NCBI GenBank assembly: GCA_040218735.1
Contig: JAVJQW010000070.1
Span: forward strand, 256,001-320,000
DNA length: 64,000 nucleotides
Reading direction: 5' to 3'
Origin: Deltaproteobacteria bacterium
GTDB taxonomy: Bacteria; Myxococcota; Kuafuiibacteriia; Kuafuiibacteriales; Kuafuiibacteriaceae
Each line of letters starts with the position of its first letter. The first letter of the stretch is position 1. The notes beneath the pieces are model-generated. The model saw only the letters and a list, made by a program, of their open reading frames with translations. It made no database searches and was not told the DNA's origin. A program made the translations under genes and the position numbers. This document shows positions 11,168-54,623 of the stretch, piece by piece.

Positions 11168-11193
11168 GCGTCCGCCGAATAAAAGGCGGACGC
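11168..11193. terminator. Stem-loop after lon (possible terminator or stability hairpin)
   Basis: gcgtccgcc-gaataaaa-ggcggacgc, perfect 9-bp stem; no U-tract. Confidence 0.45.
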
Positions 11194-11211
11194 TCCCCGC
11201 ACCGACGGAGC

Positions 11212-31740: not shown

Positions 31741-31783
31741 CCACGACCCACCGCATCGGTCTGCCCCGACGCGAAGGTAATCC

Positions 31784-33835: not shown

Positions 33836-33842
33836 ACGTGGT

Positions 33843-34409: not shown

Positions 34410-34410
34410 C

Positions 34411-35954: not shown

Positions 35955-36655
35955 ACCGCGCCGAGGCTCGGAACGTCACGAAGGTCTACGGAGCGCACCG
36001 GGCGCTCCACAAGGTGTCGCTGTCGCTGACGCCGGGGTGTGTCACGGCGCTGATGGGCCCGAACGGCGCGGGCAAGACCACCCTCCTCTGGCTGTTCTCG
36101 ACGCTGTCGCGACCGACGTCCGGGACGATGCACTTCGGGGCGCTCCCGCCGGAGCGCGCGAAGGAAGCGCGTGGTTGGATCGGCCTGCTGTCGCACGCGT
36201 CGCTCACGTACGGAGACCTGTCGGGGCTCGAGAACGTGGTGTTCTTCGGGAAGCTCTACGGCGCGGAGGCGCCGGAGCGCGAGGCGCGCGCGTTGCTCAC
36301 GGAGTTCGGCCTCGAGGACGCGATGCACCGGCCCGCGAAGACGTACTCGCGCGGCATGACGCAGCGGTTGGGGTTGGCGCGTGCGCTGATCGGGCGGCCG
36401 AAGCTGGTGCTGCTCGACGAGCCGTTCACGGGGTTGGACCGCGCGTCGACGCGGACGGTGATCGAGCGGATCGGTCTGCTGCGGGATCAGGGCGCAATGG
36501 TGTTGATGATCTCGCACGACGTCGAGACGACGGCGGAGCTCGCGGACGAGTTCGCGATCCTGGTGCGCGGGAAGCTGAAACACACGCACGAGGGCCGCCT
36601 CGACGCGGCGGCGCTGCGCGACGAGTACGCGCGGGTCGCGGAGGGGGCGGCGTGA
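35951..36655 (+). CDS. ccmA: Heme export ABC ATPase CcmA
   Basis: GPNGAGKTT, YSRGMTQR, LLDEPFTGLD; true start ATG 35951. Confidence 0.93.
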   Translation: MNRAEARNVTKVYGAHRALHKVSLSLTPGCVTALMGPNGAGKTTLLWLFSTLSRPTSGTMHFGALPPERAKEARGWIGLLSHASLTYGDLSGLENVVFFGKLYGAEAPEREARALLTEFGLEDAMHRPAKTYSRGMTQRLGLARALIGRPKLVLLDEPFTGLDRASTRTVIERIGLLRDQGAMVLMISHDVETTAELADEFAILVRGKLKHTHEGRLDAAALRDEYARVAEGAA

Positions 36656-37383
36656 CGGAGGACGCGGCGGTGGCGGTGCCCGAGAAGCAGGAGCCGGGGA
36701 TCTTCGCCGTGCTCCGGGGTGCGCTGTTCGTCGCGAAGAAGGACCTCCGCGTGGAGTGGCGCAGCAAGGAGATCCTGCTGACGACGGGGTACTTCGGGCT
36801 GTTCGTGGTGCTGGTCTTCTCGTTCTCGTTCGTGGCGGGCGCAGAGAAGGAGAGCGTGGTCCCCGGGATCTTGTGGGTGGCGATCGCGTTCTCGGGGGCG
36901 TTGGGGCTCGGGCGGGTGTTCGAGCGCGAGCGCGAGGGGGACTGCATCCGGGCGCTGTTGTTGTCCCCGATCGCCCGGACGTCGATCTACCTGGGCAAGG
37001 TGCTCGGGGTGTTGGTGTTCATGGTCGGCGTGCAGGCGGTGGTGCTGCCGGCGGTGTGGTTCTTCTTCAACCTGCGCCTGTCGATGACGAACGTCGCCTA
37101 CTTGTTGGGGATCGTCACGCTGGGGACACTCGGCTACGCGATCGTGGGGACGCTGCTGGCGTCGATGTTGATCCGCGCGCGCAGCAAGGACGTGCTGCTC
37201 GCGATCGTGCTCTACCCGCTGATCCTGCCGATGTTGATCATCGGCGTGCAGGCGACCGGGCTGTTGTTCGCGCCGGAGCTGAACCTGACGGAGCTGAAGG
37301 TGTACCTTCGTGTGCTGGGGCTGTACGACGCAGTGTTCCTGGTCGCGAACCTGTGGATCTTCGAGCCGCTGCTGATGGACTGA
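36652..37383 (+). CDS. ccmB: Heme export permease CcmB
   Basis: KDLRVEWRSKE, PGILWVA, FEREREGD, YLGK, LYPLILP; GTG 36652 overlaps the ccmA stop. Confidence 0.93.
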   Translation: MTEDAAVAVPEKQEPGIFAVLRGALFVAKKDLRVEWRSKEILLTTGYFGLFVVLVFSFSFVAGAEKESVVPGILWVAIAFSGALGLGRVFEREREGDCIRALLLSPIARTSIYLGKVLGVLVFMVGVQAVVLPAVWFFFNLRLSMTNVAYLLGIVTLGTLGYAIVGTLLASMLIRARSKDVLLAIVLYPLILPMLIIGVQATGLLFAPELNLTELKVYLRVLGLYDAVFLVANLWIFEPLLMD

Positions 37384-37397
37384 AAGGAATATACTCG

Positions 37398-38120
37398 ATG
37401 GAACAAGCGATTCGCGCCGAGCTATTCGATTCGAAGAAGGGTCTCCCGACACCCCCGGTGTTGGTGTTGCTGTCACTCGCGGCCGCGGGGGTGATCGCCG
37501 CGGCGGCGTGGATGGTGTTCTTCTACGCGCCCATCGAGAAGGAGATGGGCTTCGTGCAGAAGATCTTCTACTTCCACGTACCGTCGGCGTGGCTGATGTT
37601 GTGGTCGGCGCCGCTGATGGCGGTGGGGTCGATCGGGTACCTCGTCACGAAGAAGGACAAGTGGGACCGCCTCTCGGACGCGGGGGTGGAGCTCGCGATC
37701 GTCTTCGGTGCGCTGGTGATGATCACCGGCCCGCTGTGGGGCCGAAAGGCGTGGGGCGCGTACTGGGTCTGGGACGTGCGCCTCACGTCGACGCTCGTGT
37801 TGGTGCTGACGTTGGTGGCCTGCAAGATCGTCCGCGGCTACGCGGGCTCTTCGGCGAAGCAGATCGCGGCGGGGCTCTCGATCCTCGCGGTGCTGAACGC
37901 GATCTTCGTCTGGGTCTCGGTGGACCTGTGGCAGGGCTCGCACCCGCCCAAGCTGGTGCAGACGTTGTCGGCGGAGATGAAGTCGACGTTCTGGCTCTCG
38001 GTGCTCGGCTTCCACCTCGCCTACGGCGCGCTGTTGTGGTCGCGCTTGAGGATGGGCAAGCTCCGGACCGCGCTCGACCGGCTGCAGATGAAGGCCGTCG
38101 AAGCGGGTTACGACGATTGA
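37398..38120 (+). CDS. ccmC: Heme delivery protein CcmC
   Basis: IFYFHVPSAW, WWD motif TGPLWGRKAWGAYWVWDVRLT, second His SHP; AAGGA RBS. Confidence 0.95.
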   Translation: MEQAIRAELFDSKKGLPTPPVLVLLSLAAAGVIAAAAWMVFFYAPIEKEMGFVQKIFYFHVPSAWLMLWSAPLMAVGSIGYLVTKKDKWDRLSDAGVELAIVFGALVMITGPLWGRKAWGAYWVWDVRLTSTLVLVLTLVACKIVRGYAGSSAKQIAAGLSILAVLNAIFVWVSVDLWQGSHPPKLVQTLSAEMKSTFWLSVLGFHLAYGALLWSRLRMGKLRTALDRLQMKAVEAGYDD

Positions 38121-38142
38121 GGCTTTGGGAAGGGGATCGGTG

Positions 38143-38463
38143 ATGCGGAGGATCGGGAAGAAGACCGTACTGGCGGCGCTGGCGATGTTCGGCGTGCTCA
38201 CGTTCGCGCCACTCGGGGTCGCGCTCGCGCAGACGTCCACGACGGGCGCCGTGGCCCCGGCCAAGAGCCCCCCGCCCGGCTTCGAGAAGGTCGCAGGCGC
38301 CCCGGACACCGAGAAGATCGACGCGAGCCGCCTGGTGGTCGCCGCGTACATCGCGATCTTCGTGGGCGTGTTCGGGTACGTGGTCTACGTCGCAAGGAGC
38401 CAGGCCGCGATGGCGAAGGAGATGGAGTCGCTCGCGAGCCGCATCGACAAGGGCGCGTCATGA
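38143..38463 (+). CDS. ccmD: CcmD-like small membrane protein with N-terminal extension
   Basis: LVVAAYIAIFVGVFGYVVYV followed by a charged helix; immediately after ccmC. Confidence 0.7.
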   Translation: MRRIGKKTVLAALAMFGVLTFAPLGVALAQTSTTGAVAPAKSPPPGFEKVAGAPDTEKIDASRLVVAAYIAIFVGVFGYVVYVARSQAAMAKEMESLASRIDKGAS

Positions 38464-38660: not shown

Positions 38661-39284
38661 TCAGGTCGTCGACGCAGCGTCCAGGAACCCCCGCGCGATC
38701 CGACGAATCTTGTGCTGCCAGTTGTAGACGACCTGCACGTTGACCCCCAGGAGCCGCGCAACCTCCGGCGGCGTGCGGCCGTCGGTGAATGCATGTCGGA
38801 ACACGAGTTGGCCGCGGGCGGGGAGCTGCTCGTCGAGGTGGGCCCCGAGTCGCGCGACGAGATCCTGCGTCACGATGCCCTCCTCCGGAGACGAAGCACC
38901 CGCCACGACATCGTCCAGCGCCTCGGGTTCGACCGGACGAAGGTGACCGCCTCGCTTCATCGACATCGCGCGGGCACGCAGTCGGTTGAACTCGCTCTCC
39001 GCCAGCATCCCCGCGAACCCTTCGAGGGTCGCACCGCGCGCGGGATCCCATGCGCGGAGCTTCTTTCCGTCGTCCGCGCTCAAAGCGATCCAAGCGTCAT
39101 TGAGAAGGTCGGCCGCGGTTCGTCCCGCGAACCCATCGGGATGGCGCTTGAAGGCACGACGCGCGCGCGCACGGAGGGTCGGAATCAGGCGACGGACGAG
39201 CGCCTCCGCGGCGTCCTCCTGCCCGGCGAGCGCACGCCGCACCAGCAGGGTGTCGGCGTGGACGACTTCGGCCTCCTTCGTCAC
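38661..39284 (-). CDS. ECF-type RNA polymerase sigma factor
   Basis: Region 2 LVRRALAGQEDAAEALV...AADLLNDAWIAL...WDPARG; region 4 GQLVFRHAFTDGRTPPEVARLLGVNVQVVYNW; GTG 39284 overlaps the S8 stop. Confidence 0.88.
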   Translation of the reverse strand: MTKEAEVVHADTLLVRRALAGQEDAAEALVRRLIPTLRARARRAFKRHPDGFAGRTAADLLNDAWIALSADDGKKLRAWDPARGATLEGFAGMLAESEFNRLRARAMSMKRGGHLRPVEPEALDDVVAGASSPEEGIVTQDLVARLGAHLDEQLPARGQLVFRHAFTDGRTPPEVARLLGVNVQVVYNWQHKIRRIARGFLDAASTT

Positions 39285-41554
39285 TGCAGGTCGATGACCG
39301 AGAAGTCCGTCACCGTCGTCGCCCCGGGCTCCGTGACGTTCACGACCAGACCGAGCGAGACCTTTCGGGGGTCCGAGAAGTCGACGGAGGCGTTGTCGAG
39401 CGGAACCTTGATGTCGAGGTGGTTGCCGAGCACCCAGTCGTCGACGTGCGGATCGTCCGGGAGCGGGATGAACTCCGTCATCGATTGAACCGGCGAAGTG
39501 TTCGTGGGGCCCTTCACGACGAGGTACGGGTTCTCGATGACCGCGTTCGGCTCTCCGTCCGAGGTGAGCTCCAGCATCAACACGAGCGTCTTCGATCCCG
39601 ACATCACCGCGGGACAGTCGGGACAGATCGGCCCCGTCGGCTGCGGTCCGTTGGAGCCGACATTCCGCCGCTCGGCGAGCGCCTCGTACGGGCACACGCC
39701 GCCGCAAGACGTCGCGGACGACCACGTCGCGGTGGCGACCGGCGAAGCGCACACGCTGCGTTGAGCCAGGTACGTCGTCGACCACGCGACCGGGCCGACC
39801 GGCGTAGCGGGCGCTGCGGTCAAGCCACACGCGGCCACGGCGGATGCACACGTCGCCAGCGTGCTCGGCGGAATTGGCTCCCGGCCGACGACGCTCATCG
39901 CGCACTGGATCAACGTCGGGCATGCGGCGAGCGCATGCCCGAGCCGGTCGATCGCCAAGACTCGGACATCGACGCCGTTCTGCGTCGTCCGCCCGAGCGG
40001 CCGCCCCGTGAGGTACAAGAGCCGCGCGATCGACTGGCGATCGAGGGCGTCTCTTCCCGCGGCGAGCTGCGCAGCCTGAACCCGCGCCGCAGCGCCGGCG
40101 ACCAGTGCGGAGCTGACGGAGCTCCCGGTGAACGCACGCGGGAGGCTTTCCAAGTGGCTCGACGTCGGCCCCTGGCCGCACACCGGGTGTACCGGCATCG
40201 CGCCCGCCGCGGCGTGCGAGGCGTACACGTGCTGTCCGGGCGCGACCAACGGCGTCTCGGCGTCGGGGATCTGCATCCCCGTCGGCCGGAGTCGATCGTC
40301 CACGGCGCCCACCGCGAGCACGAGGTTCGCGGTGCTCGGATCACCGCCGCGACACGAAGGCGCTCGGCTCCATTCCCCGGGGTAGAACAGCTCGGGGCCG
40401 GCCGGCGTCGCCTCGCACTCGAGGTCGTGCACGGTTGGGTCCAGCGTGATCGGGAAGGTCTCGGGCGGGGGCGCGAGCGGACGATTTCCGGACGCCGCGC
40501 TGACGAACGTCCGACGGTGCCCGTCGCGATCCATGCGCGCCGCGACGTCGAGGACGTACCGCACCACTTCGCCCGCAGCGTTCTCGTGGCTCGAACACGC
40601 CGTCCCTTCGATCGCCGCCGGACGCCCGAGCTCCGGCGGAAAGCCGAGGCTCAAGTTGAGCACGATCGGTCGAGCGGGGTTGCCGGCGCTCGCTCCGAGG
40701 AGCGCGTCGTCGATCGACACGCCGATCTGCGCCATCGTACCGGTCCCGTCCGGACCGAGCGCTCGATAGTCGACGACGCTCATCGCTCCGCCCGTCTGCT
40801 TTGCGAAGATGGCCATCGCCGTGCCGTGCACGTGGTACGTGCTCGAGGTGTGCTGCGACGTCGCAGCGACGACGCCGATACTCGACGCGACCGACGGGAT
40901 GACCCCCGCATCGATCAACCCCAGATCCACGAACGACTCACCGCCTGGCGGAAGCTCCGTCGTCGCGCCCTCCATACCGAGCTGACTCAGGTGCCACGTG
41001 AGCATCTCGGAGGTGGGGACGGCCTGAGCGCTGGAGACCGACGCATCACACTCACGGCCGACATAGATCTCGCTCGACGCGAGCGCGCTGTAGTCGCCGA
41101 ACGTCGTTCGGAGCGTATGAACCGCTTCACACTGGTACTGCGGACGCACCGACCGGACGACATCGTCGGACACAAAACGAACACGAAGGAATCGTAGGTG
41201 GCCGTCGGCGCGCGACGGCGGCCAAGACCGCTGCGGGAGCACGGACTGCACGTCCACCGTGACCGCGTTCGCCAAACACGCGCGGTCCCAACGCTCACAG
41301 AACCAGCGGTTGTCGGTGCTCGCGATCGTCTGCTCGAGCGCGGCGACGACCGTCGGAACGAACGTCAGGTCCGGCCACACGGCGACCTGCTGCAGGGGCA
41401 CGTCGACGAAGAAAGCATCCGCGCGACACGGACGAGCAACGACGACTTCCCCTTCTCTCACGTTCGACACCCGAGAGGTCTCCTCGGACTCCCCCGCCAG
41501 GCATCCGCTACTCAGTAGAATCAGGCACCATGTCGCCTGCGTTCGCTCGTTCAT
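39281..41554 (-). CDS. S8 (subtilisin-like) serine peptidase lipoprotein, Cys-rich
   Basis: Lipobox SSGC; Asp LIDAGV, His HVHGTAMA, VLNLSLG, oxyanion AASGN, LVAPG, Ser FTGSSVSSALVAG; PQP...CPDC tail. Confidence 0.88.
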   Translation of the reverse strand: MNERTQATWCLILLSSGCLAGESEETSRVSNVREGEVVVARPCRADAFFVDVPLQQVAVWPDLTFVPTVVAALEQTIASTDNRWFCERWDRACLANAVTVDVQSVLPQRSWPPSRADGHLRFLRVRFVSDDVVRSVRPQYQCEAVHTLRTTFGDYSALASSEIYVGRECDASVSSAQAVPTSEMLTWHLSQLGMEGATTELPPGGESFVDLGLIDAGVIPSVASSIGVVAATSQHTSSTYHVHGTAMAIFAKQTGGAMSVVDYRALGPDGTGTMAQIGVSIDDALLGASAGNPARPIVLNLSLGFPPELGRPAAIEGTACSSHENAAGEVVRYVLDVAARMDRDGHRRTFVSAASGNRPLAPPPETFPITLDPTVHDLECEATPAGPELFYPGEWSRAPSCRGGDPSTANLVLAVGAVDDRLRPTGMQIPDAETPLVAPGQHVYASHAAAGAMPVHPVCGQGPTSSHLESLPRAFTGSSVSSALVAGAAARVQAAQLAAGRDALDRQSIARLLYLTGRPLGRTTQNGVDVRVLAIDRLGHALAACPTLIQCAMSVVGREPIPPSTLATCASAVAACGLTAAPATPVGPVAWSTTYLAQRSVCASPVATATWSSATSCGGVCPYEALAERRNVGSNGPQPTGPICPDCPAVMSGSKTLVLMLELTSDGEPNAVIENPYLVVKGPTNTSPVQSMTEFIPLPDDPHVDDWVLGNHLDIKVPLDNASVDFSDPRKVSLGLVVNVTEPGATTVTDFSVIDLQ

Positions 41555-41558
41555 GTCT

Positions 41559-42317
41559 TCATTCCTCCCAGGGGCTCTTGGAGCGGTAGTCGATGGTCCA
41601 CGTCATCCAGCGGTGTGGCCCCAAGGCGCGCTCGACCTCGTCGCGGCTCCCGCTCGGCGTCGGACGTGGCGCCTCGTCGGCCGTCGTCAGAACGAGGTGG
41701 ATGGTGCGTGGGCCGAACGCACGCCCCAGCAGCGCCTCGGCTCGAACCTCGTATCGGATCACGCCCGACGGACCCGTTTCGATCGTCGGCGTCGGTCCCG
41801 CGCGGAGCACACCGGGCGCATCCGATGTCTCCACGAAGACCAGGAGCGCGACGTCTGACGTCGGGGTCTCGGGGCGAAGCAGCCAGCGGAGGTGGCTCGA
41901 CGGCACGAAGAGGGTGTTCGTCGGTTCCTCGCCGCGCACCCGCGCGACGCCGCCGAGCGGCCCTTCGGCGGAGAACGCCGGCAGCTCGCGTTTCGGGAGC
42001 AAGGCGACGACGGTGACGGCCGCCGCGACCAGTGTCGCAGCCACCGCGGTGCGCCGACGACGCCGGCTTCGCGGCTGCGGCAACTTGTCTTGCGCGAGCT
42101 CGACCTCCGCGGCCGTCACGTTCGGATCGTAGTCGGCGAGGAGCTGTCGGCACTCCGAGCAGGCGACCAGATGCCGTTCGATCGACTCACGCTCTTCGCC
42201 GGTGACCTCGCCTCGGCCGTAGGCCGCGAGGCGTCCGTCATCCGCATGATCGTCGGGCGCCGGCCCCTGCGAGACTCTGCGCAAGACGGCGTCGACATCC
42301 GCTTCGTCGTCGTTCAT
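41559..42317 (-). CDS. zf-HC2 (ZAS) membrane anti-sigma factor
   Basis: H...LAAY...IERHLVACSEC; single TM AVAATLVAAAVTVVALL; C-terminal extracytoplasmic beta domain. Confidence 0.9.
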   Translation of the reverse strand: MNDDEADVDAVLRRVSQGPAPDDHADDGRLAAYGRGEVTGEERESIERHLVACSECRQLLADYDPNVTAAEVELAQDKLPQPRSRRRRRTAVAATLVAAAVTVVALLPKRELPAFSAEGPLGGVARVRGEEPTNTLFVPSSHLRWLLRPETPTSDVALLVFVETSDAPGVLRAGPTPTIETGPSGVIRYEVRAEALLGRAFGPRTIHLVLTTADEAPRPTPSGSRDEVERALGPHRWMTWTIDYRSKSPWEE

Positions 42318-44935
42318 CGACCTCCTCCAACCACGAAGAAGGATGCCCAGTCATCGCCGCTCGCCTGGAGTGCCGCGGTTCGCAGCGCCCGCACGGGCAC
42401 GGTGGCGCCTCCGGCGGCGTAGAAGCGCTCGACGAAGGCCCTCGCCGTGCCGTCGACGACGTCCCGCGTCGTCGCGACAACCGCACGGGCTCCGCTCGCG
42501 AGGAAGGCGTCGGCCAGCCCGATTCGAAACGTGCGACCGATGCGCGCAGCGACGCCCGTCGCACAACCGCTGAGCACCACGGTCGTGGCGCGGGGGCGGG
42601 TTGCAAACAGGTCCTCCACCGTGAGCCGCTGCTGCTTCGCGAGGACCAGATGCACACTCCACGGATCCTCGGCGTTCAGAGTGCCGTGCCCCGCGAAGTG
42701 GAAGTGGCGGGTGTCGGCGATCGCGTCGAGGACCCCGTCGCGCGTGGCTGCTTCGTCCGTCAGCAGTACCGCGTCGCCGAGTCGCTCGGCGACCATCGCC
42801 CCCTCGGATCTCGCGCCCGGCAGCGTCGCGGTCGCGTCGGCGACCACGACGGGCGGCGCGTCCGAGGCGACGCGCGGCGACACGAGGAGGCTCGGGTACG
42901 GAATGAACGCCACGGGGAGACGCTCGAGCCAGGCCCGCGCCTCGGCCCGGGTCCCGAGCACCGACCAGGGGTCCGCGGCGCCCATCGTCGCGACGTAGAC
43001 GATCCCGGCCCCGTTCCACCACGGCGCGGTCGGACGTGAATCGAAGACACGCGCCCCCGCCCGCGTGAGCCCGAACCACAGGGGCCTCGCGCCGTCGGTC
43101 CACGGGACGAGGAGCCCATCGTCGGGCCCGAGCGCAGCGACGATACGGTCGAGCTCGGCCGGCGACGGAATCAGTCGTTGCTCGATCGCAGCGAAGGCGT
43201 CGGAGAACGTCGCCTCCAGCGCAGCGCGCTGACGACGTGTCTCGGCGACGAAGCGCTCGCGCTCATCCGCCCCGAGCAGCTCCGCTTCACGTGCACGACG
43301 CTCGAACGTGGCCCGCGCGGCCTGGTACCGGTCGAGGGTTCGGCGCCACTCCAGGCGCGTCGACTCGTCCAGCGCATCGAGCGCGACGCGATCATAGAGC
43401 GACCGAAAGGCGAGCGCGCGGGAGCGGTCGGCGGTGACCAACGCGAGGTCGGACCTCCCCGCGGCGACCAGGGCGTCGACAGCATCGACGAAGAGCTGGC
43501 GACGATCGTCGAGGAAACGAGCCCGATCTCGCGTCAGCTCGGTCTGCCGCGTCACCGACTCGAGGTGCGCCATCGCCGCGGTGTAGTGCCGAGCCACGGC
43601 GTCCCCCTCGAGCACGCGCGCCAGTCCGTAGTGCGCTCGCCACGTGAGGTCCGACGGGGCGCCTCCGGATTCCGCGAGCGCGCGGCGAAGGGCAACACGA
43701 TAGTGTTCGGCGGCGGCCCGCCTCCCCGCGAGGCGGTCCAGGTGCCCACGCATCAGTCGGACGAAGATCTCGACGTGCCCCGGCAATCGACCGGCCGCCA
43801 TCGACGAGAGGAGCGCGCGGCAGGTTTCGTAGTCGCCCGTGAGGTAGCGAACGTAGAGGAGGTTGGTCTGCGCAATCTGGAGCAGATGGCCTTGCTTCGC
43901 GATGCGCGCGAGCTCGAGCGCCGACTCGAGCTCGCGCTCCACCCGAGACCAGTCGCGTTCGAACGCGCCGGCGTTCATCCCACGGGCGAGGACCCAGCTC
44001 CTGTCGACGGCCAACCCGGCACGCTCGAAGTCGGGCATCTCGGCGGCGTCGTCCGCGATCTGTTCGAGCCGGGCCCACGCGTCTTCGTAGCGCCCGACCT
44101 CGAGCAGCGACGCGACCTGCGCCTTCGCGAGCCAGCGCGCTTCGGCCTCGAAGCCCCCCGCCTCGGCGACCACGATGGCCTCGTCCGTCTCGCGTAGCGC
44201 GCGGCGATACTGCCCCAGCTCCGCCCAGACGAGCGCACGGTAGTAGGCGACCATGACCCGACCCTGGTCGTCGTCGACCGAGGCCGTCAGCTCCGCGGAC
44301 TTCGACAACAGCGCGTTCGCCTGCGAGAAGCGCCGTGCCTCGAACTCCTGGAAGGCCGCCGATCGCAGCGCGCGCGCCTGCTCCGTCACGACACCGGTCC
44401 GCTCGGCGGCTTGGGCCCAGGCGTGCGTCGCGCGGAGGCGGCTGGCCGCGTCCCCGAGGAGTCGAAAGGTCGCGCACCTCAACACGTGCGCCTCCAGGAG
44501 CGGCCAGCCACGGAGCTCGGCGATACGTGCTTCGAGCGCCTCGAGCGCGACGTACGGATCGAGTCGCGCGCGGGTGCGGAGATCGTCGAGCACGGTAGCC
44601 CGCGCGGGGACCACGCGAAACCGCCATCGGCGGGCGCCGACCTCGATGAAGCCCTGTTCGACGGCCGGCAACTCGACGTGCGCGATGACACCCGCCGCCC
44701 GCGTCGTCGTGGAGGTGAGCCTCGCGCCCTGCCCCGCTACGGTCACGTCCGGCAGCGGCGCCGTCGCCGTGAAGTAGGGGGGATGCTCCTCGTCGAAGAC
44801 GTAGACGCGCTCCTCGCCCTCGAACGCGATGCCGCGCGCACCACGGAGCGCGATCTCCGCGGGGACGGAAACGCCGACACGCGAGCAGGCAGCGAAGAGG
44901 AGTAACACGGGCCAGAGTCTTACTCGGTCGCGCAC
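42314..44935 (-). CDS. TPR-CHAT (caspase/separase-like) protease, probable lipoprotein
   Basis: Catalytic His FHFAGHG and Cys VVLSGCATG, GLADAFLASGARAVVAT, DWASF; long TPR-like helical region; LLLFAAC lipobox after GTG 44935 (start inferred). Confidence 0.9.
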   Translation of the reverse strand: MRDRVRLWPVLLLFAACSRVGVSVPAEIALRGARGIAFEGEERVYVFDEEHPPYFTATAPLPDVTVAGQGARLTSTTTRAAGVIAHVELPAVEQGFIEVGARRWRFRVVPARATVLDDLRTRARLDPYVALEALEARIAELRGWPLLEAHVLRCATFRLLGDAASRLRATHAWAQAAERTGVVTEQARALRSAAFQEFEARRFSQANALLSKSAELTASVDDDQGRVMVAYYRALVWAELGQYRRALRETDEAIVVAEAGGFEAEARWLAKAQVASLLEVGRYEDAWARLEQIADDAAEMPDFERAGLAVDRSWVLARGMNAGAFERDWSRVERELESALELARIAKQGHLLQIAQTNLLYVRYLTGDYETCRALLSSMAAGRLPGHVEIFVRLMRGHLDRLAGRRAAAEHYRVALRRALAESGGAPSDLTWRAHYGLARVLEGDAVARHYTAAMAHLESVTRQTELTRDRARFLDDRRQLFVDAVDALVAAGRSDLALVTADRSRALAFRSLYDRVALDALDESTRLEWRRTLDRYQAARATFERRAREAELLGADERERFVAETRRQRAALEATFSDAFAAIEQRLIPSPAELDRIVAALGPDDGLLVPWTDGARPLWFGLTRAGARVFDSRPTAPWWNGAGIVYVATMGAADPWSVLGTRAEARAWLERLPVAFIPYPSLLVSPRVASDAPPVVVADATATLPGARSEGAMVAERLGDAVLLTDEAATRDGVLDAIADTRHFHFAGHGTLNAEDPWSVHLVLAKQQRLTVEDLFATRPRATTVVLSGCATGVAARIGRTFRIGLADAFLASGARAVVATTRDVVDGTARAFVERFYAAGGATVPVRALRTAALQASGDDWASFFVVGGGR

Positions 44936-44992
44936 CCGCCCCACCCCCAGCGGGACTACCCGAAGGGGACGCCGGAGGTAAGCGCAACCGTC

Positions 44993-45029
44993 GATGATCG
45001 TCGTCGGTTCAAGGCGCGTTCCTTTTCTT
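44993..45029 (-). promoter_or_regulatory. Putative ECF promoter for the CHAT operon
   Basis: Minus strand AAGAAAAGGAacgcgccttgaaccGACGACgaTCAtC; matches the plus-strand copy at 25/37 nt. Confidence 0.5.
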
Positions 45030-45138
45030 GGCTCCGCTTTTTTTTCGACACGGCCGACGCCGAGCGCTCGTGAGTTGCAACATCTGTATGTCGCCACCCC
45101 TATGTCGAGGGAGACCCCATCGAGCGAAGACGAGGAAG

Positions 45139-45175
45139 AAGAAAAGGACCGAGCGTCGCGGTGACTACCGTCAGC
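45139..45175 (+). promoter_or_regulatory. Putative ECF promoter for the M4 peptidase gene
   Basis: AAGAAAAGGAccgagcgtcgcggtGACTACcgTCAgC directly before ATG 45176; AGAAAA-N17-GACTAC. Confidence 0.55.
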
Positions 45176-48100
45176 ATGAAGAAGACACGTCGCTCCCTCC
45201 CACCCTTCGTTCCCCCATCGACCGTCGTCGTCGGGCTCCTCCTGTCGACGTCGGCGTCCGCGGCGCTCCCGCCCGACGCCCCGGGCTGGGTCCACGCCGA
45301 AGAGGTGGCCATCGTCCCCGGTGAGAGCGTCGAGGCGTTCCTCGCGCGCGCCCCAGAAGCTCTGTCGTTGTCCGAAGACAGTGAGCTCGTCGCCACCCCC
45401 GAGGTCGCGTCGCTGTACGGCGGCCTCTCGATCGTCCGCGTTCGTCACCTCTACCAAGGCGTGGCCGTCGTCGACGACTCTCTGGTCTTGAGGGTCGACG
45501 ACGGCGTCGTCAGGTCCGCCCTCGCCCGCGTGGTGCCCAACCTCGTCGCGTCCCTCAGCCGTTTGGCTCCGCACGAGGAGGCGGAGAGTACGGCCACCCA
45601 TGCGTTCGTGGAGCTCGGTCTCGTCGTCCCCTCGCCGATCTGCACGACCCAGCTCGCGCGCCCGCCGGGTCACCCCGACGAGCTCCCCTCCGCCGTCTGG
45701 TCGTGCGTCGCCTACGACGCGACCGGCGTCTTCGCCGGTGAGGTCGTCCTCGACGCCTACTCGCTCGAGACTCGACTCATGCACGATGGCCACGCGCACT
45801 GGACTCCGACGACCGCCGTAGGCCCCACGGTCTACGACTCGGTCCAGAGCTTCTCCGCCGAGTCGCAAGCGACCTCGTCGCCAGCGCAGTGGCGGATGTC
45901 GGGCCCGAACATTCGGACGCTGACGATCAACTACACGGGTGATGCGTCCCTCTGGTACCCCTTCGCCGACACCGACATCACCACCTCGAACGCCCCGACC
46001 TTCCCGATGAGCGCGGCTCCCGAGGCCTCGCTCCACTGGGGCGGCGAACAAGCGCTGGCGATGCAGAACGCGTGGCTCGGGATCGACACGCGCGCTGCGA
46101 TGACGGCGCGCCTCGGGCAACCGCAGTTCATCAACCTCATGGTGCGAGGCCAGGACATCGCGGAGCAGGCCCGCAACGTCCTGCGTTTCGGCGAGTCGAA
46201 CGGACACCCGATCGGGACGCTCGACGTCGTCGGACACGAGTACGGGCACGCCGCGGTCGGATATCAGCAGACCATCGCGGCAGCGGACACGTCGTACCTC
46301 TACTCGGAGTGGGGATCGATGGAGGAGTCCCTCGCGGACATCCTCGGCTCGATGACCGAACTCAGGACCCGCACCACGACGGATTGGATCGTCGGGGGTG
46401 ACCTCCCGGCCAGCGTTGGCTTCAGCCGCCACATGATCGACCCCGCGCTGAGCGTGCCCCCTCAACCCGACGTGTACGGCGGTCAGTACTTCGTCCCCTC
46501 GCCGCTGCTACCGGACGGTTGGCCGCACCCCAACAGCTCGATCTACTCCTTGTGGTTCACCCGGATGGCGCTCGGTGCGACCGGCACCAACAGCGCGATG
46601 GTCGCCTACGACGTGGAGGGGATCGGCGCCGTCCCGGCGCAGAAGATCGCCTTCGGAACGTACATCGAGGAGCTGCCGACCCTCGGCACGTACTACGCCG
46701 CGACCAAGGCGTCGCAGGTCTTCATCCGTGACCACTGCGGTGACTTCTCTCGAGAGGCCCGCGCCTCCCACAACGCTTGGCACTCCGTCGGACTGCAGAC
46801 ATCGCCGGTGACGGGGAACGAATTCCTGGTCCCCGCAGACCAAGCGACCGCGGTCTCGCCGTGGCCCACGAAGCTGAAGTGGCAGGCCGCGATCAACGGG
46901 CCGGCGGAGACGACGTGGGAGATCGAGATCAGCACCGACGCCAACTTCGCGTCGGCGGCGACCCACAGCTACGTCTCGACGCAGTCCGAGGTCGACGGCG
47001 GCATCGGCGTCGGCATCATGGAGACCGACCTCGAGCCCGACACCATGTATTACTGGCGTGTCCGCAAGACCCCCTTCGCCGCGGACTTCGAGTGCTGGCG
47101 CCCGACGCGCAGCTTCACCACCTCCGACGCCGCGCCGACCCCGTTCTACCCGTCCGGCGGGACGATTCACCCCTGGGCGATCCCGTTCGCGTGGTCGCAG
47201 GTCGAAGGCGCGACGTTCTACGAGGTCGAGGTCTCGGACGGTGAGAAGGTGCTCTTCGAGAACCGTCAGGTCTTCGCAGCGGATCCCGAGGAGCCCGATC
47301 CCTCGGAGGCGATCACGGTGCCGAAGCTCGCCGAGTTGGTGTGGCGGGTGCGTGCGATCCGGCAGCCCCCGCCCCCGGCGCAGGGCGAGGTCTTCGGTGC
47401 GTGGAGCTCGCCGGTCTCCTTCATGACCGACGAGCCGCAAGCGATGCTCGTGAGCCCTCCGAACGGGAGCTATCAGTATCCGTGGCCCTTGGAGTTCGTC
47501 TGGCAGCCGCTGCGCGGCGCGACGTTCGACCTGTCGGCGGTGGGCGTGGGCCCGAAGAAGAGTCGGATGACGCCGATCCGCAACCTCGAGACAAAGGACA
47601 CCTTCGCGCTCGTCAGCGTGAACGCCGAAGCCGAACCGGCCGACAACACCGGTCTGGAGTGGGAGATCGCGACGCTCGGCCCGCCCCTCGGGAGCGAGTC
47701 GCTACCGGACGACGAGACCACCCGGGAGTCGGGGAAGATCTCGAGCGCTTGGACCGTGTACATCGACGGCCGCAACACGGAGGTCCATTCGGCGACGGCA
47801 CCGCTCGGCTGCCTGCCCTACAACTCCACGTTCACGTTCAGTTGGGCGCCCGTCGACGGAGCGAGCACTTACAGTGTCAGCGCGTACGGTCCAGCGACCG
47901 TCACGGAAGGCACCTCCGCGACGTTCGCGGCGAAGGCGCCGCAGGGCTACGGGGGCTTCCTCATCAGTATGGACGCCGAGACGACCAAGAACCTGGGACC
48001 GGGTTTCCTCCGCGCGAGCAACTTCGGCTCCACGTTCGAGCGGTACGAAGTCGCGCCGACCAAGCCGATCATCACCGCGATCTATCCGGACGCGTTCGAA

Positions 48101-48748
48101 CCGAAGGAGATGGACTACGACTGGTACAGCGAGTTCGCGAACAGCGACTACTGGGACGTCGAGCTGTACGAGGGCACGACGTGCTCGGGGAGCCTGGTCG
48201 CAGGCGGGACACACCGCTACCCGCCCGACGTCGAGGAGGGTCACAACTTCGGCGCGCGCTGGAACAACGTCCAACCGGGCGCCCACAGCATGAGGATCCG
48301 CAACGCCGCCAACAGCCTGTGCGCGCCCTCGCCGTGGTCCGACTGCGTCGCGTTCGACGGACCGAGACCGCCCGAGCCGGCCCCGCCGCCGAACGCCGCG
48401 ACGTGCGGGCAGCAGGTGGTGAACGGCGGCAACCTCGGCGCCTACTTCGCCGTGCAGCTACCGTCGACCGGCACGGGCCAGGTTCAACTGCAGTACGATC
48501 ACATCTGCGTTCCGGACCGCACGATCGTCCGCGATCCGTACGGCATCATCCTGCACGATACGGGCTGCGTCGCGACGCGAACTCCAGCGTCCCTCCCCGA
48601 AGGTTGCGAGGGGCCGGCCGTCTTCGTCGACGCGGGGTGGGCGCCATTCCTGACCTCGTCGTACGTGACAGTCCAGGTCATCCCGGACTGCATGCTCGCG
48701 AACAACACGGAGTGGGCGGTGAAGGTCGACTGCCAGATGGATCCGTAG
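45176..48748 (+). CDS. Secreted M4 (thermolysin-like) zinc metallopeptidase with C-terminal Fn3/Ig-like repeats
   Basis: Signal peptide; propeptide HLYQGVAV; LDVVGHEYGH; GSMEESLADI; GWPHPNSSI; repeated PWP..F/L.W modules. Confidence 0.9.
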   Translation: MKKTRRSLPPFVPPSTVVVGLLLSTSASAALPPDAPGWVHAEEVAIVPGESVEAFLARAPEALSLSEDSELVATPEVASLYGGLSIVRVRHLYQGVAVVDDSLVLRVDDGVVRSALARVVPNLVASLSRLAPHEEAESTATHAFVELGLVVPSPICTTQLARPPGHPDELPSAVWSCVAYDATGVFAGEVVLDAYSLETRLMHDGHAHWTPTTAVGPTVYDSVQSFSAESQATSSPAQWRMSGPNIRTLTINYTGDASLWYPFADTDITTSNAPTFPMSAAPEASLHWGGEQALAMQNAWLGIDTRAAMTARLGQPQFINLMVRGQDIAEQARNVLRFGESNGHPIGTLDVVGHEYGHAAVGYQQTIAAADTSYLYSEWGSMEESLADILGSMTELRTRTTTDWIVGGDLPASVGFSRHMIDPALSVPPQPDVYGGQYFVPSPLLPDGWPHPNSSIYSLWFTRMALGATGTNSAMVAYDVEGIGAVPAQKIAFGTYIEELPTLGTYYAATKASQVFIRDHCGDFSREARASHNAWHSVGLQTSPVTGNEFLVPADQATAVSPWPTKLKWQAAINGPAETTWEIEISTDANFASAATHSYVSTQSEVDGGIGVGIMETDLEPDTMYYWRVRKTPFAADFECWRPTRSFTTSDAAPTPFYPSGGTIHPWAIPFAWSQVEGATFYEVEVSDGEKVLFENRQVFAADPEEPDPSEAITVPKLAELVWRVRAIRQPPPPAQGEVFGAWSSPVSFMTDEPQAMLVSPPNGSYQYPWPLEFVWQPLRGATFDLSAVGVGPKKSRMTPIRNLETKDTFALVSVNAEAEPADNTGLEWEIATLGPPLGSESLPDDETTRESGKISSAWTVYIDGRNTEVHSATAPLGCLPYNSTFTFSWAPVDGASTYSVSAYGPATVTEGTSATFAAKAPQGYGGFLISMDAETTKNLGPGFLRASNFGSTFERYEVAPTKPIITAIYPDAFEPKEMDYDWYSEFANSDYWDVELYEGTTCSGSLVAGGTHRYPPDVEEGHNFGARWNNVQPGAHSMRIRNAANSLCAPSPWSDCVAFDGPRPPEPAPPPNAATCGQQVVNGGNLGAYFAVQLPSTGTGQVQLQYDHICVPDRTIVRDPYGIILHDTGCVATRTPASLPEGCEGPAVFVDAGWAPFLTSSYVTVQVIPDCMLANNTEWAVKVDCQMDP

Positions 48749-48775: not shown

Positions 48776-49867
48776 CTACGCGCTCAGCGCGGCGCGTGCG
48801 AGTAGCGACCAGCGCGAGAACGCGCCCGCGAAGGCCCTGTCGCCGGAGCGCGCGGGGACGCCGATCAAACGAACCTTGTCGCCGTCGACGTCGATCCACA
48901 GGCGACCGTCCGCCTTCGAGCCCGTCGCAAGGCCGATCATCAGCAGCCCCAAACCCGCGAGCAGCAACAGCCCCGCGGAGGACTGCGACAGGCCCTTCCC
49001 TGGCGTCGGCTTGCGCCCCATCGAGCGCGCCTTCACGGCGACGAAGCCCTGGCGGTGTTTCTCGTCGAAGCCCTCCGGCGCGTTCAGGTAGACCCAGAAC
49101 TCGTCGATGCGCTTCGTGTCGTCGATGACCTTCTCGATGCGGACCGCCGGGCCCATGCCGTCCTTCGTCGCCGCGTAGTTCCGGAGGAAGTAACGCGGAC
49201 GCCACTGGAAGAACTGGCGGCTCTCGTCCTCCACCATGTCGAACAGGCCGACCGTCTGCGTGCGGCTGTCCTTCACCTCGAGCACCGCGCTCACCATCGT
49301 GTTCACGAGCGGCACCGGCTGCGCCGCGAGGCCCGCTCCGACCACCAGCGCGATCAAACCGAGGTGGGCGAGGAGCGGCGCCATGTCCGCCGACGGGCTC
49401 GTCTGAAACGACATCGTGACCCGAGCGCCCTCGACACGCTCGTCCGTCGGCGCCGATCCCAACACCGCGCGGAACGACTCACGCAGCTGCTCCACCGCGA
49501 GCTCGGGCGTCGTCGACGCCAGCTCCACCGTGTGCGGCGCACCCGCCGGCGCCACGCCGAAGTCCTGGTCCACGCGGTCGCGCTTCAACACCCGAACCGT
49601 CACCGCGAGGACGTTCGCGAGGATCAACACCCCGAGCGCACGCACCCACGCCGTCTCGAAGAGATCCGTCAGCCCCCACGCGGCGAGCTCCTGAAGCTGC
49701 TCGGTGTGTGGCAAGCGCATCAGCGCCATCGCCTCGCGGCCCTGCGGCACGACGGCCGCGACCCCCGCCAGCAACGCCAAGAGGATCGCCAACACGGCCG
49801 TCGTCCGCATGGACGACAGCACGAGCCAGAACCGGTCCACGAGGTTCAGCTCGTCACGCGCGCTCAT
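48776..49867 (-). CDS. resB: ResB/CcsB-like cytochrome c biogenesis protein
   Basis: LSSMRTTAVLAILLALLAGVAAVVPQG, GLTDLFETAW, LLAHLGLI; shorter than typical. Confidence 0.7.
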   Translation of the reverse strand: MSARDELNLVDRFWLVLSSMRTTAVLAILLALLAGVAAVVPQGREAMALMRLPHTEQLQELAAWGLTDLFETAWVRALGVLILANVLAVTVRVLKRDRVDQDFGVAPAGAPHTVELASTTPELAVEQLRESFRAVLGSAPTDERVEGARVTMSFQTSPSADMAPLLAHLGLIALVVGAGLAAQPVPLVNTMVSAVLEVKDSRTQTVGLFDMVEDESRQFFQWRPRYFLRNYAATKDGMGPAVRIEKVIDDTKRIDEFWVYLNAPEGFDEKHRQGFVAVKARSMGRKPTPGKGLSQSSAGLLLLAGLGLLMIGLATGSKADGRLWIDVDGDKVRLIGVPARSGDRAFAGAFSRWSLLARAALSA

Positions 49868-50340
49868 GGCGACCCTGCTTCTACCTCAGGCTCCGCCTCC
49901 GCGGAACGCAGGCGGCTGTGGTTCACCAGCTTCACCGCCTCGGCGTACACAAACGACGCGACGTTCGGCGTGTCCTGCGCGTGACAGGGGCGGCACGTCT
50001 GCTCGTCGACCTTCTCCAGGCCGAGGAGCTTCGAGAGGCGCTCGTCGCGCATCACGTTGTCCGGCGCGTACAGGCTCCCCGCCCCGTGGCAGGACTCACA
50101 CTGCACCCCCGCCAACCGCGGATCGCGGCTCTCCGGCGCAGTGGTGTGGCAACCGCGGCACGCGGCGTCGTCCGCCTGGCGCTTCGTGAGATGCGCGAGC
50201 GCCGTGGCGTGCCCCGACTTCTTCCAGTCGGCGTACTCCTTCTCGTGGCAGGTGCCGCACTGTTCGGCGCCGATGAAGTCGGCCGCGACCGCCGGTCCGG
50301 CGACCAGCAGCGTGCCCAGGGCGATGACGAGCCTGCGCAT
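49864..50340 (-). CDS. Tetraheme cytochrome c (c554-like)
   Basis: Signal peptide; CGTCH, CRGCH, CESCH, CRPCH; WKKSGHA; ATG 50340. Confidence 0.9.
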   Translation of the reverse strand: MRRLVIALGTLLVAGPAVAADFIGAEQCGTCHEKEYADWKKSGHATALAHLTKRQADDAACRGCHTTAPESRDPRLAGVQCESCHGAGSLYAPDNVMRDERLSKLLGLEKVDEQTCRPCHAQDTPNVASFVYAEAVKLVNHSRLRSAEAEPEVEAGSP

Positions 50341-50426
50341 GTCGGGCGGGAGCCTACTGAGGCGCGTGGCCCGTGTCCAAGCAACAATGCACGCCGTCGT
50401 CGCCAATGCCTGCTAGGGTCGCCCCC

Positions 50427-51026
50427 GTGCGGGTGGTGGGCCTGACGGGCGGAATCGGCTCGGGCAAGTCGACCGTGGCGCGGATGCTCGCCGCGCGCGG
50501 CGCGACGATCGTCGACGCGGATCGGATCGCCAAGGCGGTCGTAGAGCCGGGGACGGACGGCCTCGCCGCCATCGCCGCGCGCTGGCCCGAGGTCGTGGTG
50601 GACGGCGCCCTGGATCGCCGCGCGCTCGGGCGGATCGTCTTCGGCGACGACGAAGCCCGCGCCGCCCTGAACGCCATCGTCCACCCCCGTGTCGCCGCGA
50701 GGACCGCGCAGGCCATCGCCGCCGCCGCCGAGGCCGGGGCGCCGCTGATCGTCTACGACGTCCCCCTCCTCTACGAGAACGGCCTGGAGGCGCAGGTCGC
50801 CGAGGTCATCGTGGTCTTCACCTCCGACGCCCAACGCCGCGAACGCATCCGCGCACGCGACGACCTGTCCGACGAAGAGATCGAAGGCCGCATCGCGGCC
50901 CAGCTCCCGCTCGAAGAGAAGGTCCGCCGCGCGGACCACGTCATCGACAACGACGGCACGCTCGAAGCGACCGAACACCAGGTCGATGCCCTCTACGCCC
51001 AGCTCACCCGCGAGGACGCGAAATGA
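50427..51026 (+). CDS. coaE: Dephospho-CoA kinase
   Basis: VGLTGGIGSGKSTV, VDADRIA, LNAIVHPRV, DVPLLYE, ADHVIDN; start approximate. Confidence 0.97.
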   Translation: MRVVGLTGGIGSGKSTVARMLAARGATIVDADRIAKAVVEPGTDGLAAIAARWPEVVVDGALDRRALGRIVFGDDEARAALNAIVHPRVAARTAQAIAAAAEAGAPLIVYDVPLLYENGLEAQVAEVIVVFTSDAQRRERIRARDDLSDEEIEGRIAAQLPLEEKVRRADHVIDNDGTLEATEHQVDALYAQLTREDAK

Positions 51027-52102
51027 CTCGACACGTTTTCATCACCGGCTTCCCGGGGTTCATCGCGCGCAACCTGCTGAAGAAGCTCCTCGCGGTGGAC
51101 CCGGAGGTCACCGTCACGGCGCTGGTCGAAGCCGGCCGCGAGCAGGAGGCGAAGGAGGCGCTCTACGGCGTCGACCAACACGACACCGGCGACCTCGCCG
51201 CGAGCGTCCGCGTCGCGACGGTGGTCGGCGACGTCACCGCGATGGACCTCGGCCTCGCCGGCGCGGAGTTCCGGGCCATCACCTCGCGCACGACCGAGAT
51301 CTACCACCTGGCCGCCGTGCACGCGGTCGCCGCGGATCGGTCCATCGCCGAGCGCGTCAACGTGCGGGGGACGGCGAGTGTCCTCGCGATCGCCGAAGCC
51401 ACGACGAACCTCGAACGCTTCGTGCACTTCTCCAGCGCCTACGTCAGCGGCGACCGGACCGGCGTCATCCTCGAAGACGAGCTCGAGGAGGGCCAGAGCT
51501 TCAAGAACGCGTACGAGGCCACGAAGTACCAGGCGGAGGTGCTCGTCGAACGCGCGAAGAAGCGGCTGCCGTGCACGGTGATCCGGCCCGGAGCCGTCGT
51601 CGGCGACTCACGCACCGGCGCGATCGATCGCTTCGACAGCGTCTACCAGCTCGCGATGATGCTGGTCGCGTCGCCGGTGTCCGTGCCGATCCCCCTGAAG
51701 GGCGACGGCCGCGCGCCGATGAACCTCGTCCCCGTCGACTACGTCGTGGACGCCGTGCACGCGATCGTGAGCTCGCCGGCGAGCATCGGGCACACCTATC
51801 ACGTCGTGGACCCGAACCCCCTCCCCGCGCGGCGCGTCTACGAGCTGGTCGCCGAGCGCGCCGGCAAACCGCTGCCCAAGCGCACCGTGTCGCCGAACCT
51901 GACCAAGGCGCTGCTCAAGATCCCGGGGCTCGAGAAGCTCGCGTCACTCCAGGGCGAAGCGATCGACTACCTGAACCAGATGGCCTTCTACAACTCGACG
52001 CAGACCGCGGAGCTGCTCGTGGGCACCGGCATCCGGTGCCCGCCGTTTTCGGACTACCTCGAAAACCTCATGAGCTACGCGCGCGAGCGCACCACGCGTT
52101 GA
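51023..52102 (+). CDS. Extended SDR / NAD-binding (male-sterility-type) oxidoreductase
   Basis: FITGFPGFIA, YHLAA, NVRGT, YEATK, RPGAVVGDS. Confidence 0.9.
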   Translation: MTRHVFITGFPGFIARNLLKKLLAVDPEVTVTALVEAGREQEAKEALYGVDQHDTGDLAASVRVATVVGDVTAMDLGLAGAEFRAITSRTTEIYHLAAVHAVAADRSIAERVNVRGTASVLAIAEATTNLERFVHFSSAYVSGDRTGVILEDELEEGQSFKNAYEATKYQAEVLVERAKKRLPCTVIRPGAVVGDSRTGAIDRFDSVYQLAMMLVASPVSVPIPLKGDGRAPMNLVPVDYVVDAVHAIVSSPASIGHTYHVVDPNPLPARRVYELVAERAGKPLPKRTVSPNLTKALLKIPGLEKLASLQGEAIDYLNQMAFYNSTQTAELLVGTGIRCPPFSDYLENLMSYARERTTR

Positions 52103-52105
52103 TCG

Positions 52106-53317: not shown

Positions 53318-53441
53318 GTCCCCATCGATCCGGTGCCTCACGCGAATCCCCCCAAAGGATACAGTGCCGCTCTTCGCCGGATCGTTCGAGCCCCGGAGTC
53401 TTCGACGCAACGTCCCAGGATGTAAGTCGATAACCCACCCC

Positions 53442-53846: not shown

Positions 53847-53847
53847 A

Positions 53848-54552: not shown

Positions 54553-54623
54553 CGGAATCGAAGCTCCTAGCACGGACGCATACCGCTTGCGAACGGCGTC
54601 GAACGGGTGTTACCGGACGTCCC

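Follow-up and report, generated by a model that had tools for sequence, protein, structure and literature searches.

A protease-rich operon around an ECF sigma factor

The DNA analyzed here is a 64,000-nucleotide (nt) stretch (hereafter “the window”) of contig JAVJQW010000070.1 from a Myxococcota genome of 11.6 Mb (GCA_040218735.1, “the host genome”), in which five neighboring genes encode a sigma factor of the extracytoplasmic function (ECF) type, an anti-sigma factor, and three proteases. Four of these genes lie head to tail on the reverse strand. In the direction of transcription, they encode a predicted exported TPR-CHAT protease of 873 amino acids (42314..44935; Pfam, alignment, and structure model), an anti-sigma factor of 252 amino acids (41559..42317) with a zinc-binding domain, one membrane helix, and a predicted periplasmic beta-sandwich, a predicted exported subtilase (S8) of 757 amino acids (39281..41554; Pfam, fold model, and a leader read by eye), and an ECF-type sigma factor of 207 amino acids (38661..39284) from a myxobacterial subfamily with a conserved region-4 motif. 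Successive genes are joined by an ATGA overlap (42314-42317), a 4-nt gap (41555-41558), and a GTGA overlap (39281-39284). Facing away from this operon, on the forward strand, is a gene for a putatively secreted thermolysin-like M4 metalloprotease of 1190 amino acids with fibronectin-III-like repeats (45176..48748; Pfam and catalytic residues).

All five open frames displayed a coding-type G+C content at third codon positions (0.80-0.89), and significant Pfam matches were obtained to CHAT (E 4e-27), zf-HC2 (E 8e-7), Peptidase_S8 (E 2e-8), and Peptidase_M4_C (E 3e-12). For the sigma factor, the matches to Sigma70_r4_2 (E 1.5e-5) and to TIGR02937 sigma70-ECF (E 1.7e-10) both fell slightly below the curated cut-off (Pfam and NCBIfam, respectively). 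The five genes, overlaps, and catalytic residues described in an initial annotation of this DNA are thus borne out by open frames, Pfam, and alignments. A second, independent public assembly displayed the same layout, with one contig spanning 39411-50000 (subtilase to M4) at ~99% identity (95 differences, 1 gap) and another, which overlaps it, spanning 38709-39439, so that the five-gene arrangement is not an assembly artefact.

Conservation of the four-gene set

The order CHAT, anti-sigma, S8, sigma was found at four loci of the host genome, this one included, with 35-58% identity. The same genome contains 21 CHAT matches, and 14 of its loci join a related sigma and anti-sigma factor to a TPR-CHAT gene; a subtilase adjoins 10 of these 14, a trypsin-like gene is found instead in 1, and neither is found in 3. 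Across the loci surveyed, the sigma/anti-sigma/CHAT trio without a subtilase was recorded at L006, L008, L012, L019, and L078. The S8 subfamily is itself rare, with 23 proteins among 8000 candidates, and was detected in 7 of the 19 other genomes of the family and in 3 further genomes among 301 of the phylum, for which 3 candidates per genome were scored. When this subfamily was used as an anchor in other genomes and in metagenomes, all four genes were recovered at 11 of 17 loci, which are related to one another and do not represent independent trials (L021 and L022 were left out of locus counts). Six of the complete loci follow the order seen in the window, two read anti-sigma, sigma, CHAT, and then S8, and in the other three S8 is divergent from anti-sigma, sigma, and CHAT. 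The six incomplete loci all run into contig ends, five with one to three partners and one with none. A survey anchored on the sigma factor returned 12 hits, 10 of them in cassettes (including 4 in the host genome), along with one accompanied by anti-sigma and CHAT only and one orphan. Locus L039 was counted as having all four genes, and its split CHAT and sigma frames were omitted from alignments; there (L039:4685-8097), the two genes are each split across two frames, reflecting either decay or sequencing error.

The survival of this gene set through rearrangement argues for functional coupling, and the four genes almost certainly form a functional unit. The coupling claimed in the initial annotation accordingly stands, while its picture of three protease classes around one sigma/anti-sigma pair does not define the unit, as an M4 gene accompanies the cassette in only 1 of the 17 other S8-anchored loci. 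Genes with a Peptidase C14 caspase domain are found at two host-genome loci, one beside a TPR-CHAT and a trypsin gene (L014:12532-14115) and one behind a sigma/anti-sigma-like pair (L020:9445-12109).

A separase-like protease and its predicted docking on the anti-sigma factor

From its most likely start (GTG 44935), the TPR-CHAT protein begins with a lipoprotein-type signal (LLLFAAC, Cys17; read by eye), followed by a small beta-sandwich (residues 28-108), a TPR superhelix (114-514), a helical hairpin (524-585), and a separase-like protease domain. Among the 16 CHAT proteins whose N-terminus is visible, 14 have a hydrophobic leader that ends in Cys, and in 2 the hydrophobic leader lacks a Cys (again by eye). 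Judged from these leaders, the protein is exported and extracytoplasmic, which supports the extracytoplasmic placing of the CHAT switch in the initial annotation. The catalytic His750 and Cys791, as well as Asp828, are invariant in 16 of 16 aligned homologues. The top Foldseek match of the structure model (predicted local distance difference test, pLDDT, 89) is DdvA, the anti-sigma factor of the DdvS/DdvA pair of Myxococcus xanthus, in which a zinc anti-sigma domain, a membrane helix, and a periplasmic TPR-CHAT region are fused (PMC11506125; PDB 8rot and 8rw5). DdvA was also the only CHAT protein matched when a CHAT profile was compared to the PDB (E 7.6e-9), and a single-sequence search of the PDB returned nothing at E 1. 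In a second structural alignment, the highest scores were obtained for Csx29, the TPR-CHAT protein of type III-E craspase (Z 29.1, root-mean-square deviation 7.3 Å over 455 residues), and for separases. Superposition of the protease domain onto fungal separase gave 2.6-3.0 Å over 256-266 residues, and in the model helices 516-585 precede the protease core and residues 488-873 align with the separase protease domain. The TPR part (residues 108-465) reached Z 23-25 against the peptide-binding Rap and NprR receptors, and against other TPR proteins; based on these models, a peptide ligand is plausible, though the match to Rap and NprR may be generic.

In the anti-sigma factor, the zinc-binding residues are His24, His49, Cys53, and Cys56, a single hydrophobic segment forms the membrane helix (residues 90-108), and the periplasmic domain (about 110-250) is beta-sandwich-like, with template modelling (TM) scores of 0.56-0.65 to predicted models. 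In the PDB, it matches ChrR and a chain of a mycobacterial anti-sigma but not Csx30, and its profile does not match DdvA. A zinc-free form of the same anti-sigma is common, both among its relatives and at L042, L045, L046, and L060-L062.

Outside of the membrane, the most conserved non-glycine residue of the periplasmic domain is Arg128 (codon 41934..41936, reverse strand), located 20 residues from the membrane helix. This position is Arg in 17 of 17 cassette homologues, and Arg (144) or Lys (4) in nearly all of 150 family representatives, 137 of which have Gly, Ser, or Ala as the next residue. Within 11 more distant aligned anti-sigmas (10 from the host genome and 1 from another), the Arg is kept in all but one, which has Met. 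Arg128 was picked from conservation ahead of the complex-model result, and both make it the candidate P1 residue of a CHAT cut. For the complex, CHAT 20-873 and anti-sigma 108-250 were modelled with custom alignments, yielding a score of 0.68 compared to 0.01 for the best control, with at least 98% of contacts shared between three runs and a partner pLDDT of at least 85. Among solved complexes, 116 of 157 attained the score mark applied, compared with 2 of 215 mismatched pairs, although these rates are only approximate with custom alignments. In the modelled interface, anti-sigma residues 122-130 meet CHAT residues 702-709, 749-752, 789-792, and 825-829, which include the His750, Cys791, and Asp828 segments, and the tip of the CHAT hairpin (552-556) meets anti-sigma residues 180-188. 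Co-folding of the two proteins, as had been suggested in the initial annotation, hence placed a periplasmic loop of the anti-sigma in the CHAT active site. CHAT quite probably binds the anti-sigma, and we lean, by a smaller measure, towards CHAT also cutting it at Arg128.

The S8 protein combines the features expected of a subtilase, i.e., an Asp/His/Ser triad, an oxyanion Asn, and a prodomain. It is organized as a signal ending at Cys18 (by eye), a prodomain (about residues 41-175), a Cys-rich linker, and a C-terminal beta-sandwich, and its Asp215, His243, Asn357, and Ser479 are invariant in 23 of 23 sequences. The best fold matches of its model (pLDDT 81) are pro-subtilisins, and its homologues likewise begin with export-type leaders (by eye). 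Together with the single membrane helix of the anti-sigma, the leaders of CHAT and S8 would place both proteases on the same side as the anti-sigma C-terminal domain.

Paired promoter-like sites and variable cargo genes

Within the 240-nt gap between the CHAT and M4 genes, the same 10-nt A-rich word occurs on both strands, each copy facing a gene and followed by 14 nt and then GAC(G/T)AC. The promoter-like site towards the CHAT operon (45000..45029, reverse strand) consists of an A-rich -35 ending in GGA, 14 nt, and GACGAC, and the one towards M4 (45139..45168, forward strand) of the same 10-nt -35 word, 14 nt, and GACTAC. The word is found 5 times in the host genome, including 3 times at cassette promoters. 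Of 24 upstream regions examined in other genomes, 19 contain a related motif (an A-run, G, 15-17 nt, and (A/C)GTA), compared to 94 of 7200 random windows (1.3%) and 0-1 regions at clearly wrong spacings; this enrichment is overstated because the pattern was read by eye off the same regions that were counted, and the loci are related, with three from one family. Using a matrix trained only on other genomes, the M4 site ranks 1 and the operon site 9 in the 64-kb window. Genome-wide, the local variant of the motif has 3 matches, two of which are at this locus, so that the regulon looks local. The third match (C55:368662), before a Lon-like gene, was rejected as probable chance, with control spacings giving 0-3 intergenic hits. 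A scan for sigma-70 promoters and terminators returned 0 promoters, and 3 terminators vs 3.3 expected by chance.

The most likely M4 start (ATG 45176) lies 7 nt behind its promoter-like site, and the corresponding message is therefore probably leaderless or nearly leaderless. Promoter sites of the family often end 7-10 nt before the start codon (L039, L042, L047, L001, L036, and 45163-45176 in the window), and such short distances suggest leaderless or nearly leaderless messages more generally. Elsewhere in the window, a site resembling the promoter of this sigma (11176-11214, forward strand), with an A-rich -35, a spacing one base shorter, and CCGAC, is found 5 nt before the ATG of a putatively secreted beta-helix protein (11212-12162), a possible distant target. 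Two sigma factors, the one in the window (38664-39284) and L036:3918-4538, have Ser for the usual Arg in the AERE motif of region 2.4, and the -10 adjoining both is of the C(T/G)AC type, in place of GTA. Among the four host-genome paralogues, the -10 variant seems to differ from one to the next, with L001 fitting poorly. This covariation between region 2.4 and the -10 was not used as evidence, since it involves two related sigmas only and one exception. A reading of the A-tracts as CarD-CarG sites was dropped as well, the tracts being at the -35 position; in a CarD search, only CarD/TRCF-domain frames of 161 and 1212 amino acids, and no long CarD, were found.

The M4 protein retains the catalytic features of its family, namely HEYGH(354), EESLAD(383) with the third-ligand Glu, and His451. 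No Pfam hit was obtained at E 0.01 in residues 30-210, a region whose length would fit an FTP/PepSY propeptide. Full-length relatives of this protein are rare: none was found among 7999 candidates except its own near-identical copy, and no homologue was found in 19 other genomes of the class. The S8-anchored locus with an M4 gene mentioned above is a metagenome locus (L047), which encodes a homologue of the full architecture (27% over 964 columns). At this locus, the M4 gene points away from the cassette and an astacin-like gene; each is preceded by the motif, which lies 8 nt before the M4 ATG. Near other cassettes, the neighbors are a motif-bearing gene for an astacin-like protease (L003), genes for Rhs-like proteins (L001 and L036), or nothing recognizable as cargo. 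The Rhs/FG-GAP proteins are encoded directly downstream of the cassette sigma (L001:1-5305 and L036:1-3646), with weak SpvB and TcdB-middle Pfam hits, and possibly represent toxin-like cargo. The rarity of M4 and the presence of other neighbors at other cassettes suggest that M4 is a variable cargo rather than a core component. It is nevertheless quite probable that the sigma factor drives M4, and the earlier proposal that the sigma induces both the operon and M4 gains support as probable, since both carry the same promoter-like motif.

A proteolytic switch and its alternatives

In the RseA/DegS/RseP system, two-step regulated intramembrane proteolysis releases an ECF sigma factor. This logic is also summarized in PMC10028731. 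The best explanation for the cassette, and one we regard as probable, is a split version of a DdvA/DdvS-like switch working by regulated proteolysis. At rest, the anti-sigma would hold the ECF sigma at the inner membrane, as is typical of zinc anti-sigma factors. The exported TPR-CHAT is predicted to dock on the anti-sigma periplasmic domain, such that its hairpin tip contacts the beta-sandwich and its active site receives the Arg128 loop. The His/Cys dyad would then be aligned by a periplasmic signal, for which a protein or peptide captured by the TPR superhelix is the likeliest candidate, and CHAT would cut after Arg128 to leave a 20-residue stub. By analogy with DdvA, this stub would be cleaved by an RseP-type membrane protease; RseP-family genes are present in the host genome. 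The freed sigma would finally transcribe its own operon and a neighboring secreted hydrolase, here M4, as the shared motif suggests. The resulting two-step cleavage would resemble that of RseA, except that the first cut would fall to a separase-like cysteine protease serving a single anti-sigma.

Several observations weigh against this mechanism. Beyond the overstated motif enrichment and the relatedness of the promoter-bearing loci, the operon-side site fits the family -10 poorly, as reflected in its rank, and the L001 paralogue has no clean motif match. The zinc-binding HxxxCxxC pattern is kept in only 86 of 150 anti-sigma relatives (P0027-P0176). The complex score may partly reflect likeness to solved CHAT- or separase-substrate complexes, and the loop placed in the active site could act as an inhibitor and not as a substrate. 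In separase, Asp2151 recognizes the P1 Arg, and this Asp is replaced by Lys in craspase (PMC9729208); Asp828 is equated with it only by similar spacing from the catalytic Cys. Finally, the two sides of this presumed contact do not always vary together: the paralogous anti-sigma at L019 has Met at the Arg position though its CHAT keeps the Asp, and the L018 CHAT has Ser at the Asp828 position though its anti-sigma keeps the Arg.

If the docked loop were a pseudo-substrate, as securin is for separase, CHAT would act as a guard or sensor, and the subtilase or another protease would make the first cut. The docking model cannot separate these two roles, DdvA autoproteolysis is itself proposed and not demonstrated (PMC11506125), and the subtilase, exported, with an invariant triad, and present at most of the sigma-linked TPR-CHAT loci of the host genome, would be a candidate. 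We still consider this arrangement unlikely: the trio is found at several loci without any subtilase, the CHAT dyad is intact in all aligned homologues, and the residue following the Arg is nearly always small, as at a scissile bond. In addition, at 5 of 5 loci with separate transcription of S8 and the anti-sigma (L039, L042, L060-62), S8 has a promoter copy to itself, as an output would. The subtilase is thus most likely a co-induced exported partner, with cargo maturation or feedback to the switch as its likeliest tasks, and not the first-cut enzyme. As for the M4 gene, it could be a chance neighbor under separate control beside an otherwise genuine cassette, in keeping with its near-absence from other genomes and cassette loci, and 43 of 708 divergent intergenic regions of the host genome share a 10-mer on opposite strands. 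However, an AT-rich shared word like this one is found in only 3 of the 708 regions, this one included, 3 of the 5 genomic copies of the 10-mer are at cassette promoters, no site in the window outranks that of M4, and the single further full-length homologue that was detected is likewise beside a cassette and behind the family motif. A chance association is accordingly the least probable of the alternatives considered here.

The split switch could also serve different purposes. Since its apparent targets are secreted hydrolases, and no defense genes were found among the scanned window proteins, feeding or predation seems weakly favored over anti-phage defense, and we tentatively suggest, at somewhat less than even confidence, that the cassette senses and digests external protein or prey material. 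The same switch could instead be employed in anti-phage or envelope defense, as for DdvS/DdvA. That system, the one relative to have been studied, governs a CBASS/CRISPR island and is able to confer protection from phage Mx4 (PMC11506125), and craspase also ties CHAT to a sigma factor in a defense context (PMC10028731). On the other hand, 11 window proteins had no defense-model match in PADLOC except for a weak CHAT-domain hit, no Cas family was detected in 28 scanned window proteins, Rfam returned 0 matches in the 64-kb window, and the motif precedes genes for secreted M4, astacin-like, or Rhs-like proteins, all of which makes a defense role improbable, slightly more so than a guard role for CHAT.

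A more speculative extension, which we regard as doubtful, is that the paralogous cassettes constitute orthogonal two-protease trans-envelope sensors. In each, CHAT would act in trans on the anti-sigma of the same cassette, cutting it at a fixed Arg close to the membrane, the co-induced subtilase might make or destroy the peptide sensed by the TPR, and every paralogous sigma might read its own -10 variant and release a different secreted weapon or digestive enzyme. If this is correct, a bacterial protease resembling separase would have a defined substrate, with Arg at P1, outside the cytoplasm, and a single genome would contain a modular network of about fourteen channels for sensing prey or food.

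Relation to described systems

The initial annotation presented the system as a candidate undescribed one and drew its analogy from craspase. The concept has, in fact, been described, DdvS/DdvA being a published extracytoplasmic TPR-CHAT anti-sigma switch (PMC11506125), and craspase was rejected as the closest system in its favor. For DdvA, self-cleavage by CHAT followed by RseP is proposed, RseP cleavage was shown for a truncated DdvA, and, with the DdvA signal unknown, the proposed CHAT first cut could not be tested; M. xanthus has two more DdvA-like anti-sigmas (PMC11506125). The CHAT of DdvA is further marked by the absence of a three-helix motif at the active site. As in that system, an ECF sigma is found here together with a zinc anti-sigma domain linked to a single membrane helix, and with an extracytoplasmic TPR-CHAT with a His/Cys dyad (with export here read from the leader), a CHAT first cut followed by RseP is a proposal in both, and an apparently self-regulated operon has a further exported peptidase gene nearby (C25 in the DdvA system). 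Unlike in DdvA, anti-sigma and TPR-CHAT are two genes, and are so in every aligned cassette; the CHAT bears an export signal of its own, and the anti-sigma ends in a small beta-sandwich instead of a helical scaffold. The subtilase is a standing partner only in the present cassettes, the promoter has an A-rich -35 and a different -10 instead of the DdvS pattern GTAA-n16-CGT (PMC6061681), no long CarD was found, and the targets appear to be secreted hydrolases rather than CBASS/CRISPR, none of which was found among the scanned window proteins. The cassette would thus work like DdvS/DdvA but departs from it in fusion, scaffold, promoter, and regulon, and we consider it a variant and not a member. 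Within the host genome, an anti-sigma of the same type (E 5.5e-33) is naturally fused to a TPR-CHAT (L015:6965-10135, G000:C23); this fusion keeps the conserved Arg and has a subtilase downstream, i.e., a DdvA-like architecture built from the split parts.

Craspase shares with the cassette a TPR-CHAT fold and a protease cutting a separate sigma inhibitor in trans (a cut that is predicted here), with targets in its own locus (Csx29/Csx30/CASP-sigma; PMC10028731). It differs in relying on Cas7-11, a CRISPR array, and an RNA trigger, with no Cas family detected here among the 28 window proteins scanned, in acting inside the cell, in having the soluble Csx30 rather than a membrane-bound class I zf-HC2 anti-sigma, and in having Lys where Asp occupies the presumed S1 position here (PMC9729208). 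The combination of CHAT and subtilase beside an ECF sigma has been published for ECF54, in which CHAT, subtilase, and carboxypeptidase genes surround a sigma for which proteolytic control was proposed (PMC8999054). The actinobacterial ECF54 is described without an anti-sigma in PMC8999054 and PMC7826278, unlike the present Myxococcota cassettes, which have a membrane anti-sigma at their core. Operons pairing a sigma-70 with a metacaspase are known from Myxococcus and other Deltaproteobacteria, and likewise associate a clan CD protease gene with a sigma factor, repeatedly within myxobacterial genomes (PMC3501461). Those proteases are peptidase C14 metacaspases, with no anti-sigma, subtilase, or mechanism described in the consulted parts of that article. 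No description of the split four-gene unit was found in the literature, in which subscription journals were thinly covered and ECF group descriptions may include such a context. Specific to the present analysis are the modelled docking at the CHAT active site, the promoter pair at this copy, and a second association of M4 with a cassette.

TPR-CHAT proteases are widespread, and few of their substrates are known. A split form makes the question of a CHAT first cut testable, as it offers a substrate domain that is small and soluble, an almost invariant Arg in the modelled active site, and two predicted promoters. If confirmed, such a cut would connect the Arg specificity of separase with bacterial CHATs, and would suggest that these switches control secreted hydrolases, not defense alone. 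Paralogues with different -10 elements could further act as orthogonal protease-gated switches.

Genomic and environmental context

The nearest protein clusters of the encoded proteins are mostly from Myxococcota, including the nearest clusters of the sigma factor. Among the sequencing runs listed, those containing more than 40% of the stretch, a possible source set aside, are sponge, aquaculture, and biofloc metagenomes from three studies, and no RNA data with this stretch were found among 20 listed runs. On its left, the cassette is flanked by cytochrome c maturation-like genes (31294-38463; named by eye), and on its right by ResB-like and multihaem cytochrome genes (48776-57370). Its position inside a cytochrome-gene region is consistent with an inserted module.

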